Positions 2,472 through 9,960 are shown, counted from the stretch's first letter. The stretch: 10,894 bases of DNA from a virus (IMGVR_UViG_2617270939_000004:1-10894), one strand, 5' to 3'. The notes: generated by a model not told the origin, from the sequence alone. Program-made: numbers and translations.

Positions 2472-3509
2472 TTATTCCTGAACACCTAAAACATAGTCAT
2501 CAAAACGTATTACTTCTGCACCCACCCATTCGTTTAGTTCATGTAGTCGCTTCTGTAGTGGCATCAATTCATTGCGAACAAATACAAGACTAGCCTTCTC
2601 CACATCCCCAAAACCCCCAACATTATTTGGCATAATCCCCATCATCTGTGGCGGAACGCGATGTGCTGCCATCATGTCATCGCGGCTGACATTTTTGATA
2701 TTCAGAAACTCATCCTTCGCCGCAACTTCTGACAAAGGGATGATCTGAAGGCCGTCCTTTTTGCCGTTAGGCGAGTACATAAACAGGTTGCGGAAGTTGC
2801 CTGGACCTTTGGCGCTTTTCATCGCGTTGCGGAGATTGTTCACATCCTCCTGATTCTGCGCGGCGTCGGTCATGTACATGATGAAGCCTGCATGGCTGCC
2901 GTTGATGTAATACTTACGGCGGAACAGCGTGGCGGACTCATTGAGCAGGGCTGACGGAATGGCAGAAAGATAGCCGGGCAGGCCGTAGATCTCCTGGTTA
3001 ATGTCCGGTTCCATCAGATGAAAGATGCTGCCTTTCGTGAACTGATACGGCTGTGTTGTCATACCGTATTGCACAAACCAGTAGGTTTCTAGGTCTAACC
3101 CGCGTCGGGTGTATTTTGCCAGGGCCGGTTCAAGGGCGATAACTTCACCGAAGCGGTTCGTGCGTTTCTCCAGGTAGGCGTTACCAAATACCAGATAGTC
3201 CTGCACAAAACGTGAAAAAGCCTGCTGGCTGAGCAGCGGGTGAGGGATGTAGGTACTGGTCAGAATGTTGCACTTTACTGCAATCGGGGAACTGTGATGC
3301 ACAGCAGCGCGGAAGGTGCGCGCCAGTCCGTCAAAGCTGACAGGAGGCTCATACCAGCGATCTGTCTGTACGCATTCCACATAGTCCAGCAGTTCGCGGC
3401 GGTCAAGTACTGGAATGGGATCACCGAAGCTGAATGCTTCGGCTGTAGTCTGGCTTTTAAGCTGGCTCTGTTTCGTCGCCGCAGCGCGGTTCTTCTTACT
3501 CTTTCCCAT
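2472..3509 (-). CDS. Q: P2-family portal protein gpQ
   Basis: The 345-aa translation closely follows P2 gpQ as I recall it (...FGDPIPVLDRRELLDYVECVQTDRWYEPPVSFDGLARTFRAA...). I place the start at ATG 3507-3509, preceded by GGAG, rather than the TTG at 3510-3512 used by the ORF track. This ATG overlaps the stop of P by one base. Confidence 0.93.
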   Translation of the reverse strand: MGKSKKNRAAATKQSQLKSQTTAEAFSFGDPIPVLDRRELLDYVECVQTDRWYEPPVSFDGLARTFRAAVHHSSPIAVKCNILTSTYIPHPLLSQQAFSRFVQDYLVFGNAYLEKRTNRFGEVIALEPALAKYTRRGLDLETYWFVQYGMTTQPYQFTKGSIFHLMEPDINQEIYGLPGYLSAIPSALLNESATLFRRKYYINGSHAGFIMYMTDAAQNQEDVNNLRNAMKSAKGPGNFRNLFMYSPNGKKDGLQIIPLSEVAAKDEFLNIKNVSRDDMMAAHRVPPQMMGIMPNNVGGFGDVEKASLVFVRNELMPLQKRLHELNEWVGAEVIRFDDYVLGVQE

Positions 3510-5275
3510 CAAAAAATCTCCACAATATTGCTGGTATTGGCGGACTCGCCCTGCAGCGGTTCGTTAAAGAGTGCGTGCATTGTTGCCCAAGCCAGATCGG
3601 CATGGCTGGCTTCTTCGCTGCGGCTGGCTTCATAGGTCGGGCGGTTGCCGCTGGCGGTGGTGGCGCGACGGATTGCCATGAATGACTGCGCAATGTCGGT
3701 GTGTCCGGCGTCAAATTCTAGGCGGCGGTGACTGATAATGTCGTAGGCCTTGAGTACCAGGGCGTTTTTAACGTTGGGGTTGTAGACAAACTCCCGGACG
3801 GCAGGAAAGAATGCTTTCACGTTCTCGTAAACCCCGTGGCCGACGCCAGTTGAGTCGATGCCGATGTATGTCACGTTGTACTGTTCGGTCAGTTTTTTGA
3901 TGGCGTCAGCCTGGGCGCGGAAGTCCACCCCGCGCCACTGGTGACGCTCAAGAATGCGGAACTTACCGCCCGGCACGGCTGGCGGTGCCACCACTACGCA
4001 TCCGGCGCTGTCGCCGTTTTGCGTACCTTTTGCCGGGTCATAACCGATCCACACTTCGCGCCAGCCAAAGGGGCGCAGAGCCAGTGCATGAAAGTCGGTC
4101 CAGACTTCCCAGCTGTCCACCATGCACGCCTGCAGCTCGCTGAGCGGGAACACGGACGCGAGATCGTCCACGAACTCGCACATCAGCAGGTTCTGGTATT
4201 CGTCCGGGCTGTACTCCATGCGCAACTGGTCAAGGTCGAACAGGTTACAGCCGCCGCGCACCGCATCTTCCACGGTGACTATCTGGCGGTATTGCCCGTC
4301 TGCGCACAGCAGGCCGGGGGCCAGATTGCTGTGGGACAGGTCGATGTCCACCTTATCGGCTTTGTTGCGCCCACGGTTGAACAGCGCACCAGACCAGAAC
4401 GGATAAGCACTGTGTGTCAGGCTGGATGGCGTGGAAAAATAGGTTTGTCGCCATTTTTTGTGAATAGCCATACCGGAAGCCACTTTGCGCAGCTCCTGGA
4501 ATTTCGGTATCCAGAAATATTCATCCAGATACAGGTTGCCGTGATAACTCTGGGCAGTGCGGGCATTGGTGCCGAGGAAGTAAAGCGTGGCCCCGTTAGG
4601 AAGCACCATCGGATCGCCTTTCAGCTCCACCTCGACTTCTTTGGCGAAGTCGATGATGTATTGCTTAAAGACGTGAGCCTGTGCCTTACTGGCAGAAAGG
4701 AAAATCTGGTTACGTCCGGTAAGCAGGGCGTCAATCAGGGCTTCACGGGCAAAGTAAAAGGTCGCGCCGATCTGGCGTGACTTCAGCAGATTACGGATGC
4801 GGTTGGTTTTTCCAGCTTCCCACCAGTGGCGCTGGTAGTTGAACATGGAGGAATGGAAGATTTCTTCCAGCTTCTCAATCTGTTCATCGGTGAAAACATT
4901 CTTTTCCGGCTGACGGCGCGGCCCTTTGTTGCGGTTGGCGACGTTAGGGTTTAAGTCGGCTTCGTTGCCGCCATTGTTAAACTTGCCGATCCGCGCGTGG
5001 CGCTCCGACTGGCGTGCCAGCAGGTCAATTTCTTTGAAATCTTTCCCTTCTTTGTGCTCCTTCATAATGAGCTGGCAATAGCGTGCGGCGGTGGTGAGCT
5101 GCATCTGATCCAGCGGCCCATAGTCACCCCACTTGTCGCGTTTTTTCCAGCTGTGAACGGTTGCAACTTTCTCGCCCAGCATTTCAGCAATGCGGGCTAC
5201 GCGGTATCCCTGAAAGTACAGCAGCATGGCCTGCCGACGGGGATCGAGATCTGCGGGTGTCAGTGTGGTGTTCAT
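3509..5275 (-). CDS. P: P2-family terminase large (ATPase) subunit gpP
   Basis: 588 aa, the size and sequence character of P2 gpP. It lies immediately upstream of Q on the same strand with an overlapping stop/start, matching the P2 Q-P arrangement. Confidence 0.93.
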   Translation of the reverse strand: MNTTLTPADLDPRRQAMLLYFQGYRVARIAEMLGEKVATVHSWKKRDKWGDYGPLDQMQLTTAARYCQLIMKEHKEGKDFKEIDLLARQSERHARIGKFNNGGNEADLNPNVANRNKGPRRQPEKNVFTDEQIEKLEEIFHSSMFNYQRHWWEAGKTNRIRNLLKSRQIGATFYFAREALIDALLTGRNQIFLSASKAQAHVFKQYIIDFAKEVEVELKGDPMVLPNGATLYFLGTNARTAQSYHGNLYLDEYFWIPKFQELRKVASGMAIHKKWRQTYFSTPSSLTHSAYPFWSGALFNRGRNKADKVDIDLSHSNLAPGLLCADGQYRQIVTVEDAVRGGCNLFDLDQLRMEYSPDEYQNLLMCEFVDDLASVFPLSELQACMVDSWEVWTDFHALALRPFGWREVWIGYDPAKGTQNGDSAGCVVVAPPAVPGGKFRILERHQWRGVDFRAQADAIKKLTEQYNVTYIGIDSTGVGHGVYENVKAFFPAVREFVYNPNVKNALVLKAYDIISHRRLEFDAGHTDIAQSFMAIRRATTASGNRPTYEASRSEEASHADLAWATMHALFNEPLQGESANTSNIVEIF

Positions 5276-5321
5276 GGCACAAACCTACAACCTTGAATGA
5301 AGGCTTTCCCCGCCTGCGGTT

Positions 5322-5339
5322 TGTGTGGTTGTCGGTACA
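5322..5339. promoter_or_regulatory. Candidate Ogr/Delta activator site (TGT-N12-ACA) of a P2-type late promoter
   Basis: TGT (5322-5324), 12 nt, then ACA (5337-5339), in the 142-bp divergent P-O intergenic region. It is centred about 88 bp upstream of the O start codon, compatible with the -55 position described for P2 late promoters. It is the only exact TGT-N12-ACA in this intergenic region. Confidence 0.35.
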
Positions 5340-5417
5340 AATACCGCGCATTGTTTCACTGCCACCATCACCGCAACCATAAGGCTCCAGTAAGTTTTTT
5401 CTAACGGAGCACAGCTC

Positions 5418-6251
5418 ATGACAGTGAAAGCAAAGCGTTTTCGCATCGGGGTGGAAGGTGCCACCACCGACGGACGCGAAATCCAGCGTGAATGGCTGGA
5501 ACAGATGGCAGCCAGCTACAACCCGACGATGTACACCGCGCTGATTAACCTTGAGCACATCAAGTCTTATCTGCCGGACAGCACCTTTAACCGCTACGGC
5601 AAGGTGACGGCGCTGTTTGCTGAAGAAATCACGGAAGGTCCGCTGGCAGGCAAGATGGCGCTGTATGCCGACGTTGAGCCAACGGAATCACTGGTGGAAC
5701 TGGTGAAAAAAGGCCAGAAATTATTCACCTCTATGGAAGTCAGCCCGAAGTTTGCTGATACGGGCAAAGCCTACCTGGTCGGCCTGGCTGCCACTGATGA
5801 CCCTGCCAGTCTGGGCACTGAAATGCTGACATTCAGCGCCAGTGCAGCCCATAACCCGCTGGCAAACCGCAAGCAGAATCCCGCCAATCTTTTTACCGCT
5901 GCAGAGGAAACGGTGATCGAACTGGAAGAAATCCAGGATGACAAACCGTCCCTGTTTGCCCGTGTCACGGCGCTGTTCACCAAAAAAGAGCAGTCCGATG
6001 ACGCCCGGTTCTCTGATGTGCATAAGGCCGTGGAACTGGTCGCCACTGAGCAGCAGAACCTGAGTGCGCGCACCGAAAAATCCCTGTCTGAGCAGGAAGA
6101 ACGCCTGTCTGAGCTGGAGACTGCCCTGCAGGCACAGCAGACCGCCTTTAACGAACTGGTGGACAAGCTGAGCCAAGAAGACAGCCGCCAGGACTACCGC
6201 CAGCGTGCAACAGGCGGTAACGCCCCCGCTGACACTCTGACCAATTGCTGA
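5418..6251 (+). CDS. O: P2-family capsid scaffolding protein gpO
   Basis: 277 aa, diverging from P at the position P2 O occupies. The sequence resembles P2 gpO from memory, including a C-terminus ending ...TNC. Confidence 0.9.
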   Translation: MTVKAKRFRIGVEGATTDGREIQREWLEQMAASYNPTMYTALINLEHIKSYLPDSTFNRYGKVTALFAEEITEGPLAGKMALYADVEPTESLVELVKKGQKLFTSMEVSPKFADTGKAYLVGLAATDDPASLGTEMLTFSASAAHNPLANRKQNPANLFTAAEETVIELEEIQDDKPSLFARVTALFTKKEQSDDARFSDVHKAVELVATEQQNLSARTEKSLSEQEERLSELETALQAQQTAFNELVDKLSQEDSRQDYRQRATGGNAPADTLTNC

Positions 6252-6267
6252 TGGAGCACAAAACCTG

Positions 6268-6441
6268 ATGAAGAAGAACACCCGCCGCCGTTCAGTTATC
6301 GACAACCCGAAACGTGACCGGATTGAAAACTTTGAATCCGTTAACGAAGCCTATGTGGTTGAGGACTACCGCTGCGCCGCACTGGTGGAAAACATCCAGA
6401 TTGGTGATTTCAGCGCCGCCGCAGCCGAAACCGGAGCGTAA
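6268..6441 (+). pseudogene. N: Remnant of major capsid gene N (57 codons, where P2 N is about 357)
   Basis: This short ORF (MKKNTRRRSVIDNPKRDRIENFESVNEAYVVEDYRCAALVENIQIGDFSAAAAETGA) occupies the N position between O and M. It resembles the extreme C-terminus of P2 gpN as I recall it (...RRVIEENPKLDRVENYESMNIDYVVEDY...VGDFS...). The stop is 3 nt before the M start, as at a normal N-M junction. Confidence 0.55.
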
Positions 6442-6444
6442 TCC

Positions 6445-7095
6445 ATGAGCCTGAGTCCCGCACGGCAGCATCGCCTGCGCGTTCAGGCTGAACAGGCCGC
6501 CCGCGAGGGCGGCAGTGTTCGCCACGCATCGGGCTATGACCTGATGCTGCTGCAACTGGCGGAAGACCGCCGCCGTCTCAAGGGCGTTCAGTCCACGGTC
6601 AAAAAAGCGGAAATCAAGGTGGAGCTGCTGCCGAAGTACGCCGCCTGGGCAGAGGGTGTCCTGGCTGCCGGAGGCGCTCAACAGGATGACGTGCTGATGT
6701 ACGTGATGCTGTGGCGCATTGATGCCGGAGATTATGCCGGAGCGCTGGAGATCGGGCGTCATGCCCTGCGTCATGGCTGGGTGATGCCGCTGGGTAACCG
6801 CAACGTGCAGACCGTGCTGGCAGAGGAAATGGCAGACGCCGCGCAGAGCGCAATGCTTGCCACCACCGGCTTTGATGCCGATCTGTTGCTGCAGACGCTG
6901 GAGCTGACAGACGGTCTGGATATGCCGGACCAGTCACGGGCGCGTCTGCATAAAGCGATTGGCGCGGTCCTGAGTGAAAGCAATCCGGCGTCTGCCCTTA
7001 ATCATCTCAACCATGCGTTACAGCTCGATCCCCGCTGTGGCGTGAAAAAAGACAAACAGCAGCTGGAGCGCAGACTGCGCAATGACAGCCGCTGA
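6445..7095 (+). CDS. M: P2-family terminase small (endonuclease) subunit gpM
   Basis: 216 aa. The N-terminal region (MSLSPARQHRLRVQAEQAAREGGSVRHASGYDLMLLQLAEDRRRLKGVQS...DDVLMYVMLWRIDAGDYAGALEI...) matches P2 gpM by recollection, and the gene follows N in P2 order. Confidence 0.9.
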   Translation: MSLSPARQHRLRVQAEQAAREGGSVRHASGYDLMLLQLAEDRRRLKGVQSTVKKAEIKVELLPKYAAWAEGVLAAGGAQQDDVLMYVMLWRIDAGDYAGALEIGRHALRHGWVMPLGNRNVQTVLAEEMADAAQSAMLATTGFDADLLLQTLELTDGLDMPDQSRARLHKAIGAVLSESNPASALNHLNHALQLDPRCGVKKDKQQLERRLRNDSR

Positions 7096-7190: not shown

Positions 7191-7730
7191 ATGAAGTTTG
7201 TTGCGCCAGAACAGGCACCGGAACAGGCGGAAATCATCAGAAATACGCCGTTCTGGCCTGATGTGGACCTGTCGGAGTTTCGCAGTGTCATGCGCACTGA
7301 CGGCACGGTGACGCAGCCGCGTTTAAAGCAGGTTGCGCTGTCGGCAATTTCGGAGGTCAACGCAGAGCTGTATGAGTTTCGCAGACGCCAGCAGATGCTG
7401 GGGTATGCCTCGCTGGCAGAGGTTCCGGCGGAACAGCTGGACGGCAAAAGTGAGCGCATTCAGCACTATTTCAACGCGGTTTACTGCTGGGCACGCGCCA
7501 TGCTCAACGAACGTTACCAGGACTATGACACCACGGCATCCGGTGTGAAGCGGGGCGAGGAACTGGCGGAAGCCAGCGGTGATTTATGGCGTGACGCCCG
7601 CTGGGCCATCAGCCGGGTAGATGATGCGGAATGGACCATTACGACTCTGACGCATACCGTCAGCCCCGATAACGGTTTTACAACCAGTCTGGAGCTTGAA
7701 GTGAGGATTGATGATTTCGAAATGGAATGA
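7191..7730 (+). CDS. L: P2-family head completion protein gpL, with a C-terminus that may be altered by a deletion junction
   Basis: I start it at ATG 7191, which has AGGAG at 7178-7182 eight nt upstream; the ORF-track start at 7128 lacks comparable support. The product is 179 aa. The central region (...NAELYEFRRRQ...LAEVPAEQLDG...DLWRDARWAI...) is gpL-like. The last 35 residues or so do not resemble the gpL end I recall. Confidence 0.75.
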   Translation: MKFVAPEQAPEQAEIIRNTPFWPDVDLSEFRSVMRTDGTVTQPRLKQVALSAISEVNAELYEFRRRQQMLGYASLAEVPAEQLDGKSERIQHYFNAVYCWARAMLNERYQDYDTTASGVKRGEELAEASGDLWRDARWAISRVDDAEWTITTLTHTVSPDNGFTTSLELEVRIDDFEME

Positions 7731-7820
7731 TTCTTCGCAATGGAGAACTTTTAAGTTTGCAAAATGGAATAATGCGGTATCATTATTGTGAATTTAGCAA
7801 AAATGGGGAGAACTCGAAAA

Positions 7821-8039
7821 ATGATGATTTGCCCACTGTGTGGAAGTGCCGCCCATACTCGCAGCAGTTTTCAGGTATCTTCATTGACCAAAGAGCGTTA
7901 CAACCAGTGCCAGAACATTAACTGCAGCCATACTTTTGTTACCCATGAAACTTTTGTTCGTTCGATTGCAACGCCAAAAGAGTCAAATCCGGTTCAGCCG
8001 CATCCAATGAAATCAGGACAGGTGGCGCTCTCTCTTTGA
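7821..8039 (+). CDS. ogr: Ogr/Delta-family zinc-finger late-gene transcription activator
   Basis: 72 aa starting MMICPLCGSAAHTRSS..., with an exact C4-x2-C7-x22-C30-x4-C35 zinc-finger spacing, as in P2 Ogr. GGGGAG (7806-7811) lies upstream of ATG 7821. The ORF-track GTG start at 7788 is probably too far upstream. Confidence 0.88.
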   Translation: MMICPLCGSAAHTRSSFQVSSLTKERYNQCQNINCSHTFVTHETFVRSIATPKESNPVQPHPMKSGQVALSL

Positions 8040-8125
8040 CGCTGCCGCCATTTTGTCGCCATCGTTAAAAAACAGTGTTTCTAACATCATGATTTTAAAC
8101 AGCTTAAATTTCAGGCAACAAAAAA

Positions 8126-8162
8126 CCCATCAACCTTGAACCGAAATGGCGGGGTTGATGGG
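8126..8162 (-). terminator. Rho-independent terminator downstream of ybjL
   Basis: CCCATCAACC (8126-8135) pairs with GGTTGATGGG (8153-8162) in a 10-bp stem around a 17-nt loop. On the minus strand it is followed by a run of six T (complement of 8120-8125). Confidence 0.5.
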
Positions 8163-8274
8163 CTCCACAAAATGGGGACATCAAAGAAAAGCAGTGGCAC
8201 TAATTAAGACTGATGCCCTGCGGAAAAGTTCTGCGGTTGTGCAAAAAAATTTCATTTTCAGGGCAACTTCAGTT

Positions 8275-9960
8275 TTATCCTAATCCTGGCCATACCATGA
8301 CGATGATTGTCCCTGCCAGCGTCAGCAGGACGTTGGCGATTGCGTAGGTGCCCGCATAGCCCAGCGCAGGGATGTTACTGCGAGCTGTATCACTGATGAT
8401 CTCCATTGCCGGCGCGCAGGTGCGTGCGCCCATCATTGCGCCGAACAACAGTGCGCGGTTCATTCGCAATACATAAGCACCGAACAAGAAACAGATAACC
8501 ACGGGCACAAGACTGACAATTAATCCGGCAATCAACATCTGACCGCCAATCGCGCCCAGGCCGTTATTAATACCGCTACCGGCGCTCAGACCAACGCCTG
8601 CCATAAACACCATCAAGCCGAACTCTTTCACCATGCTTAATGCACCTTGCGGAATGTAACCGAAGGTCGGGTGGTTAGCACGCATAAAGCCCAGCATAAT
8701 TCCGGCGAATAACAACCCGGCAGCGTTCCCCATGCCGAAACTGAATGTGCTGAACTGGAAGGTGATCATCCCGATCATCAGCCCAATAACAAAGAAGGCG
8801 CAAAATGCCAGCAGGTCAGTGACCTGGCTGTGAATCGAGATAAAGCCGATGCGATCGGCGATGGTTTTTACGCGACGGGCATCACCGCTGACTTGTAAAA
8901 CGTCACCTTTGTTAAGCACGACGTTGTCATCTATCGGCATCTCAATCTGGCTACGAATGACGCGGTTAAGGAAGCAACCGTGATCGGTCAACTTCAGTTG
9001 TGCGAGACGTTTACCTACAGCGTTATGGTTTTTAACGACCACTTCTTCAGTGACGATACGCATGTCGAGAAGGTCACGATCGAAAACTTCTTTACCGTTA
9101 CGGAAGCTGGGATCGAGTCGGGCATGGGCGTCGGGATAGCCTACCAACGCTATTTCATCGCCCATTTGTAGCACGGCATCACCGTCTGGATTTGCCAGAA
9201 TCCCGTTACGTCGAATACGTTCAATGTAGCAGCCGGTTTGTCGATAAATACCCAGTTCACGCAGATTTTTGCCGTCGGTCCAGGCCACCAGCTCCGGGCC
9301 GACGCGATAGGCGCGGATCACCGGTAAATAAACCTTACGGTTGGCATCAGTGTCCAGGCCACGTTCGCGGGCGATTTGCTGGGCGCTGGTCTGTAAGTCC
9401 TGATGCTGCAATTTCGGCAAGTAACGCGCACCAACAATCAAACTCACCAGACCGATTAAATAGGTTAAGGCATACCCGAGGCTCAGATTATCCAGTGCCA
9501 GTGAGAGCTGCCTGCTTTCCATGCCGGAATGACGCAGTGTATCGCCAGCACCGACCAGAACCGGTGTCGACGTCATAGAGCCTGCTAACATACCGGCCGT
9601 CAGGCCAATATCCCAGCCAAACAGCTTACCTAACCCTAAGGCGATCACCAGCGCACTGCCAACCATCACCAGTGCTAACATTAGGTAATTTTTCCCATCG
9701 CGAAAAAAAATGGAAAAAAAGTTCGGTCCGGCTTCGACCCCGACGCAGAAAATAAACAGCATAAAGCCAAGATTAAGCGCGTCGGTGTTAATGCTGAAAT
9801 GTTGTTGGCCTAATAACAGTGATACGACCAAAACGCCAATGGAATTACCCAGTTGGATCGAACCAAGTCGTAACTTTCCGAGACATAGCCCAAGCGCGAG
9901 GACCACAAATAATAACAGAATGTAATTCCCATTTAACAATTCGGCGACGTTTATATTCAC
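8275..9960 (-). CDS. ybjL: Putative transport protein YbjL (AAE-family inner-membrane transporter)
   Basis: The 561-aa translation ([39 protein letters not shown]...VMVWPGLG) matches E. coli YbjL from memory. It is multi-spanning and hydrophobic, with a central soluble region. Confidence 0.93.

Follow-up and report, generated by a model that had tools for sequence, protein, structure and literature searches.

The 142 bp between the terminase gene P and the scaffold gene O of an E. coli prophage remnant (positions 5276-5417) are, at a probability that we put at about 0.85 from sequence comparison, the intact bidirectional PP/PO late-promoter region of a 4LV2017-like remnant, served by an Ogr-family protein. 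The TGT-N12-ACA element inside this gap is, by homology, a genuine and intact counterpart of the single site that the divergent late promoters of phages P2 and 186 share, and in this sense it is real but ordinary.

Setting and gene content of the remnant

The whole stretch of DNA analysed, referred to here as the window, is 10,894 nt long, and all positions are counted from its first letter. It is E. coli DNA containing a P2-family prophage remnant inserted at rybB/ybjL. The right third, with ybjL, ybjM and grxA, is chromosomal and matches many complete E. coli genomes at 99.8% identity. The prophage spans about 462 to about 8130, a part that shares 96-99% identity with Klebsiella phage 4LV2017 (Elveevirus) as well as with many prophages of E. 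coli. The late genes lie in the order Q and P on the minus strand, followed by O, an N stub, M, an L'-'D fusion and ogr on the plus strand.

181-405: C-terminal fragment of an IS5-family DDE transposase (Pfam DDE_Tnp_1, below threshold)
976-994: cos-like sequence GGCGTGGCGGGGATACGAG, whose first 13 bases equal the 186 cohesive end (15/19 match overall)
1113-2087: cargo gene 1, 324 aa, no Pfam match
2087-2425: cargo gene 2, 112 aa, STAS-like DUF4325 protein
2443-2468: GC-rich hairpin between cargo and Q, probable two-way terminator
2472-3509, minus strand: Q, portal protein (Pfam Phage_portal); its ATG shares one base with the P stop codon
3509-5275, minus strand: P, terminase large subunit, 588 aa (Pfam Terminase_5, Terminase_6N and Terminase_6C)
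5418-6251, plus strand: O, capsid scaffold/protease, 277 aa (Pfam Phage_GPO, E=6.9e-113)
6268-6441, plus strand: stub of N (major capsid), 57 codons (Pfam Phage_cap_P2, positions 286-327 only)
6445-7095, plus strand: M, terminase small subunit, 216 aa (Pfam Phage_term_smal)
7191-7730, plus strand: L'-'D fusion (Pfam Phage_GPL; blastn and blastp junctions)
7821-8039, plus strand: ogr, Ogr/Delta zinc-finger activator, 72 aa (Pfam PF04606)
about 8111-8129: attR core, mapped from the 4LV2017 annotation
8117-8195, minus strand: rybB small RNA gene (Rfam, 105 bits)

Since the attR core overlaps the 3' end of rybB, the phage integrated into that gene, which Table 2 of PMC3032704 names as a place where P2-type prophages are inserted in E. 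coli B, W and Crooks. At the other end, the region of the transposase fragment (181-461) adjoins the start of phage homology, from which we take it that an insertion sequence truncated the left part of the prophage, with its replication, immunity and integrase genes. No immunity or repressor gene is visible within the window. The cos-like site lies upstream of the cargo, and the remnant keeps it along with both terminase subunits. The two cargo genes occupy the hotspot between cos and Q, and the same pair is found in E. coli PSJ-16. A PADLOC search with the pair gave no confident match and only a partial match to DrmA (4.7e-06); the two genes may be a candidate defence pair.

Q, P, O and M had been described from the sequence alone as full length, and this is borne out, as all four align with their 4LV2017 counterparts from end to end at 94-99.5% identity: Q at 93.8% over 341/341 residues, P at 99.2% over 588/588 (both proteins from the same ATG), O at 97.8% over 277/277 and M at 99.5% over 216/216. 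The remnant as a whole, 96-99% identical to complete phages, shows no point-mutational decay, and its losses are two internal deletions. In N, the first six codons are in frame with the last 50 or so, about 886 bp having been removed (blastn junctions against 4LV2017), with a junction overlap of 13 bp at 6273-6285. Between L and D, every lysis and tail gene is deleted, and residues 1-146 of the 154 of L (head completion) are joined in frame to the C-terminal 39 or so codons of D, with a junction overlap of 19 bp at 7610-7628. Lacking N, the remnant would make no capsids of its own.

The predicted activator site between P and O

The gap runs from the P ATG (A at 5275, minus strand) to the O ATG (5418, plus strand), and the genes on both sides of it were identified by Pfam. 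The TGT-N12-ACA element reported in the sequence-only reading is present exactly at 5322-5339, as TGTGTGGTTGTCGGTACA, and its dyad extends outward to TTTGT-N12-ACAAA.

5320-5341: predicted shared Ogr-type activator site, TTTGTGTGGTTGTCGGTACAAA; core 5322-5339, dyad centre 5330.5
5264-5281: second exact TGT-N12-ACA, overlapping the P start codon, 58 bp from the first

The motif count alone is no proof, and it is position and conservation that carry the case. Bare TGT-N12-ACA is matched seven times in the window, mostly inside genes, against 2.69 +/- 1.63 expected (4 of 200 shuffles reach seven matches), and TTGT-N12-ACAA is matched once against 0.20 expected, with at least one match in 32 of 200 shuffles. 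The weight-matrix scan proposed in the sequence-only reading, for which a matrix was built from eight P2, 186 and P4 sites (a weak matrix at that number), did not discriminate. With the matrix symmetrised, the site ranks first in the window with a score of 11.9, but with the asymmetric matrix it ranks fourth with 11.3 (the training sites score 11-24), and it does no better than shuffles, 64 of 200 shuffled windows reaching the window's top score in the former case and 14 of 200 in the latter.

Taken by themselves, the recurrence of the pattern in the window, mostly within genes, and a matrix score that does not rise above shuffles would fit a chance match without a role. The site's position and its pattern of conservation make that reading extremely unlikely. 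The TGT precedes the O ATG by 96 nt in the window, exactly the distance seen in 186 and PSP3. We fetched 80 related loci from viral contigs, 76 of which could be examined, and TGT-N12-ACA was found at -93 to -97 from the O ATG in 76/76, with spacer bases that differ from locus to locus (TTGTCGG, TTTACCG, CGAAAGG, CCGACCG and CGGGCGG). Among the 50 distinct sequences that made up the conservation set (the window and its relatives), 9/10 positions of the arms TTTGT/ACAA(R) do not vary, whereas the spacer is fixed at 3/12 and the gap as a whole at 69/142. A scan with P2 gpO, which recovered only loci whose O is 100% identical to that of P2, was left out of this footprinting. A Gegavirus phage that is only 78% identical in the region has the same dyad at the same distances, its centre 55.5 bp from the P ATG, and the gap in the window differs from other E. 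coli copies at two or three bases, none of them at a conserved position. Invariant arms around a variable spacer are the footprint to be expected of a dimer-type binding site, and it is as such a site that we would read the element.

The further claim that the element is an activator site of the P2 late type holds up on comparison with the annotated phages, in which it has positional homologues in the shared Ogr and B sites, features annotated from experiment. The P2 RefSeq record (NC_001895) annotates one "activator binding site; pO, pP promoters" at 3057-3087, with transcription starts at 3016 on the minus strand and 3127 on the plus strand, and the 186 record (NC_001317) annotates one B-protein site at 3798-3817 "for activation of pV and p12". 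The 18-mers in both are TGT-N12-CCA, centred 55.5 bp from both starts.

The second exact TGT-N12-ACA was considered as a second site of the P4 Psid kind and rejected, being lost in the relatives L051, L053 and L061 and in Gegavirus. Close relatives retain it, in some cases as TGT-N12-CCA, and it is probably a by-product of P codons 1-4 and the spacer between the -10 element and the ATG. A small terminator-like hairpin at 5333-5346 was also set aside, as it has no consistent support in relatives.

Predicted promoters on either side of the dyad

Compatible -10-like hexamers exist on both strands, in line with the promoter role first suggested for the gap and against the refuting case named in the sequence-only reading, a motif placed where no -10 element on either strand would fit. 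These candidate hexamers are found 43.5-44.5 bp from the dyad centre, and in the four P2 and 186 promoters the -10 hexamers, TAGCCT leftward and GAAACT rightward (the latter in P2 PO and 186 pV), begin 43.5 bp from it.

5282-5287, minus strand: predicted PP -10 element TAGGTT, 43.5 bp from the dyad centre, in the register of TAGCCT (P2 PP, 186 p12)
5375-5380, plus strand: best candidate for the PO -10 element, AACCAT, 44.5 bp from the centre; AAACAT in relatives
5406-5409, plus strand: O Shine-Dalgarno GGAG, 8 nt before the ATG at 5418; ACGGAG is invariant in relatives

On the P side, relatives also show TATGTT and TAGGCT where the window has TAGGTT, so that the hexamer changes at positions 3 and 5 and is constant at 1, 2, 4 and 6. 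We also considered AAGCCT (5306-5301), which resembles the TAGCCT of P2 and would give P a 19-nt leader. It was rejected: the dyad would then sit at -36 and no dyad-like sequence would be found at -55, it is 5287-5282 that has a hexamer in P2/186 register with a conserved TA..-T, and relatives have no conserved Shine-Dalgarno before the P ATG. On the O side, AACCAT shares with GAAACT the A at position 2 and the T at position 6, and transcription is predicted from sequence to start at about 5386-5387. Two alternatives, GCAACC (5373-5378) and CATAAG (5378-5383), overlap it within an almost invariant block (GCAACCATAAG, 5373-5383), so that the PO hexamer is one of three candidates that conservation does not tell apart. 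A consensus scan of 5276-5417 on both strands (at least 9/12) returned no sigma-70-like promoter, which is what one would expect if the promoters depend on an activator.

A predicted leaderless P mRNA

The distance from the dyad centre to the P ATG is 55.5 bp in the window, against 78.5 bp (55.5 plus a 23-nt leader) in P2, 186 and PSP3, and the gap, 142 bp here, is 173 bp long in P2 and 165 bp long in 186, with the missing length on the P side. TAGGTT is followed by six bases and then by the P ATG.

5273-5275, minus strand: P start codon, whose A (5275) lies 55.5 bp from the dyad centre and is the predicted PP start

A stop codon in frame at 5287-5285 overlaps the hexamer and rules out any start codon of P further upstream, and the DPRRQA motif and the Pfam Terminase_5 domain both begin before Met17 of P. 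Most relatives have no Shine-Dalgarno before the P ATG. On these grounds, the P mRNA is predicted to be leaderless, and this in the whole lineage rather than in the remnant alone. In Erwinia phage ENT90, the TAGCCT of P2 stands seven bases before the P ATG, and the P mRNAs of Gegavirus and ENT90 look leaderless too. Precedent for such a start is found in gene V of P2, where the annotated transcription start coincides with the start of the coding sequence.

If P starts at the conserved ATG, the RefSeq gpP of 4LV2017 is annotated 16 codons short. The RefSeq protein (NC_047818) does lack 16 codons of the conserved N-terminus (11379-11426), and PGAP gives the 588-aa form of P in E. coli copies.

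The ogr gene and its control

An intact ogr with a C-x2-C-x22-C-x4-C finger had been noted from the sequence alone, and we find the same: its product scores 77.6 bits against the Ogr_Delta profile (cut-off 26.3, E=6.7e-22), and all four cysteines align with those of P2 Ogr (52% identity) and 186 B (55% identity). Its sequence is 100% identical to that of 4LV2017 Ogr, and four other E. coli prophages encode the same protein. The gene is placed after the D fragment and before the attR core.

7756-7783, plus strand: ogr promoter candidate from a consensus scan, sigma-70-like TTTGCA-16-TATCAT, 38 nt before the ATG

The candidate lies in the 90-bp spacer between D and ogr, of which three of four other E. 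coli prophages have an exact copy and the fourth a copy with one base changed, and it resembles in position the annotated ogr promoter of P2 and pB of 186, the latter annotated as repressed directly by CI. Three direct repeats of the form ATGGA/ATGGGGA(GAAC) flank it (at about 7740, 7764 and 7803) and might be operator-like, but they have no match in the 4LV2017 immunity region. A comparison of the 4LV2017 CI-cII region with the ogr spacer for a shared operator gave one 9-mer only, which is not convincing.

Terminator prediction on the plus strand between O and ogr returned none. Through the L-D deletion, ogr has become the last gene of the O operon, with no predicted terminator in the interval. 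On the plus strand after ogr no hairpin with a U tract was found, so that transcripts may run on antisense to rybB and ybjL.

Proposed working of the region

From the motif, its position and conservation and the integrity of the genes around it, we infer binding, transcription starts and expression as follows. An Ogr-family zinc-finger protein would bind the dyad and recruit RNA polymerase to two promoters without a usable -35, one dyad, about 55.5 bp from both predicted starts, serving PP and PO alike. Leftward, a leaderless P-Q mRNA would begin with the A of the P ATG, or right beside it, and run to the hairpin at 2443-2468. This hairpin is called as a terminator on the plus strand; on the minus strand it has -15.5 kcal/mol (z = -4.2) and is followed by UUUUAUCU, and its position is that of tQ in P2, annotated just after Q. 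Rightward, an O-N'-M-L'D' mRNA would run into ogr owing to the L-D deletion, and Ogr would thereby feed its own gene.

The activator would be the remnant's own Ogr or a compatible Ogr or Delta from a P2-like phage or P4-like satellite. Ogr and P4 Delta both activate P2 and P4 late genes (PMC8628076, PMC7552001), and recognition of the present site by activators as distant as P2 Ogr or 186 B (52-55% identical to this Ogr) is assumed by analogy. It had been proposed in the sequence-only reading that a superinfecting phage or satellite supplying Ogr or Delta could induce the resident head genes and that transcription might read into the neighbouring cargo. The inducibility itself is plausible from what is known of the family and from cross-activation, but that the block waits for an invader is doubtful, since the resident ogr, with a promoter-like site and no repressor in the window, may already have switched it on. 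Self-activation by the resident Ogr is a more economical reading than reliance on an invader, and the likeliest way in which the proposal would have to be changed. Read-through into the cargo is unlikely: the P-Q transcript would converge on the cargo genes with a terminator hairpin in between, and the O-side transcript would head towards ogr, rybB and ybjL, away from the cargo. Interference with an incoming phage, or use by it, is conjecture.

Spread in E. coli and other remnants

Among 5426 complete E. coli genomes, the P/O region is found in 1078, ogr in 1142 and the N core in 983, from which it follows that most carriers hold fuller prophages and that roughly a tenth hold N-less remnants. 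In four other remnants at this site the internal deletions are different ones: O'-'D in two, N'-'U in one and N'-'D in one, the last of which also has an IS66-family element in Q. All four have an identical Ogr and a near-identical P/O gap. We considered whether the in-frame fusions in the window had been selected for expression from PO through to ogr, and rejected this, as coordinate arithmetic puts the fusions in the four other remnants out of frame. That both deletions here are in frame is probably a matter of luck. The loss of O or Q in some of these remnants also speaks against selection for the head block.

Alternative readings of the remnant

One alternative to a block awaiting an incoming activator is that the promoters work without any invader because ogr, free of its repressor, is expressed constitutively, with read-through from PO in addition (a loop from Ogr to PO to ogr), so that P, Q, O and M are always made. 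We regard this as a serious possibility, though at less than even odds. The entire D-ogr spacer with its sigma-70-like site has been retained, the part of the prophage that would hold an immunity gene has been cut off at the IS fragment with no such gene left in the window, no plus-strand terminator separates O from ogr, and loss of CI should free the promoter if it behaves as the homologous, CI-repressed pB of 186. The spacer between ogrK and yegZ in K-12 has a listed RNA polymerase holoenzyme "constitutive promoter" peak (PMC3946193). On the other side, a second, related prophage elsewhere in the genome could supply the repressor, no convincing operator is common to the CI-cII region of 4LV2017 and the ogr spacer, and terminase made constantly beside a chromosomal cos-like site might be costly. 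In favour of the constitutive reading, again, is work by Slettan et al. from 1992, in which the cryptic ogr genes of K-12 and B reportedly proved to work and to be transcribed constitutively. Were the block indeed constitutive, a superinfecting Ogr or Delta would add little.

The remnant could also be recent and intact but silent, with ogr off or with Ogr inactive on a template that does not replicate, and with deletions that are simply young. P2 late transcription in infection is normally also coupled to phage DNA replication, of which the remnant is incapable. Its 96-99% identity to complete phages with no point-mutational decay, the minority standing of N-less remnants (about 90% of genomes with the P/O region hold the N core, 983 vs 1078) and the loss of O or Q at the same site elsewhere would all agree with a relic that has had little time to decay. 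Neither the promoter nor ogr, however, shows a disabling change, and P4 Delta and plasmid-borne ogr activate late promoters without P2 replication, both on non-replicating P2 prophages and on reporter plasmids, so that we think a silent relic rather unlikely. More improbable still, in our estimation, is that the remnant is a domesticated packaging-interference element, in which a self-contained module running from Ogr to PO and back to ogr would keep P, M, Q and O on, or sharply inducible, beside the cos-like site; if it were so, the products of the module would interfere with incoming P2-like phages and P4-like satellites or be parasitised by them. Our preferred reading stays with the conserved P/O gap as a late-promoter region that an Ogr-family protein would serve.

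Comparison with known systems

The arrangement is close in design to PP/PO of P2. Both have a single dyad flanked by divergent P and O genes, a left arm TTGTGT, no usable -35, and as activator a 72-aa C4 zinc-finger protein encoded beside attR. The dyad of P2 is about 55.5 bp from each start and 43.5 bp from the -10 hexamers, and the predicted starts and candidate hexamers in the window would fit that geometry. In P2, too, ogr is wired in this way, through the F operon, whose transcript shares with that of ogr the annotated ogr terminator. P2 differs in its right arm (CCA vs ACA here), its gap (173 bp vs 142 bp), a P mRNA with a 23-nt leader where the predicted start here is the A of the ATG, and an Ogr that is 52% identical. 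Similar to the window, 186 and PSP3 have the TGT 96 nt before the ATG of the scaffold gene and one site for both promoters, and the left half of the 186 site, TTGTGTGG, is identical to that of the window. In contrast, the right arm of the 186 site is CCA, the gap in 186 is 165 bp and the terminase mRNA has a leader, and the B protein of 186 is 55% identical to the Ogr of the window, its gene being annotated as CI-repressed.

The satellite P4, with its late promoters Psid and PLL, has perfect TGT-N12-ACA dyads upstream of sid at 9493 and 9531, and another at 9133, and its activators are interchangeable with Ogr (PMC8628076, PMC7552001). It differs in having two dyads 38 bp apart before sid and satellite genes under their control, whereas the window has one conserved dyad and head genes of the helper type. 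A fragment of D with an intact ogr beside the attachment site is likewise seen in the "ogr-D'" remnant of K-12 (ogrK-yegZ, at cyaR) and in the rybB prophages of B, W and Crooks. The K-12 remnant keeps D' and ogr only, with no late promoter left to act on, whereas the present one keeps the PP/PO region, Q, P, O, M and the cos-like site.

Implications

The finding means that a common E. coli prophage lineage uses the already well-known P2/186 late-promoter design, which is of little import beyond annotation, and it would gain real importance only if the head proteins of the remnant affect the outcome of infections. Nevertheless, the remnant indicates that decayed copies can retain an activator and its target promoter together. 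The predicted leaderless terminase mRNA would be a small new addition to what is known of gene expression in the P2 family, and a resident Ogr could cross-talk with incoming P2-like phages and P4-like satellites, in keeping with an old idea of P2/P4 genetics.
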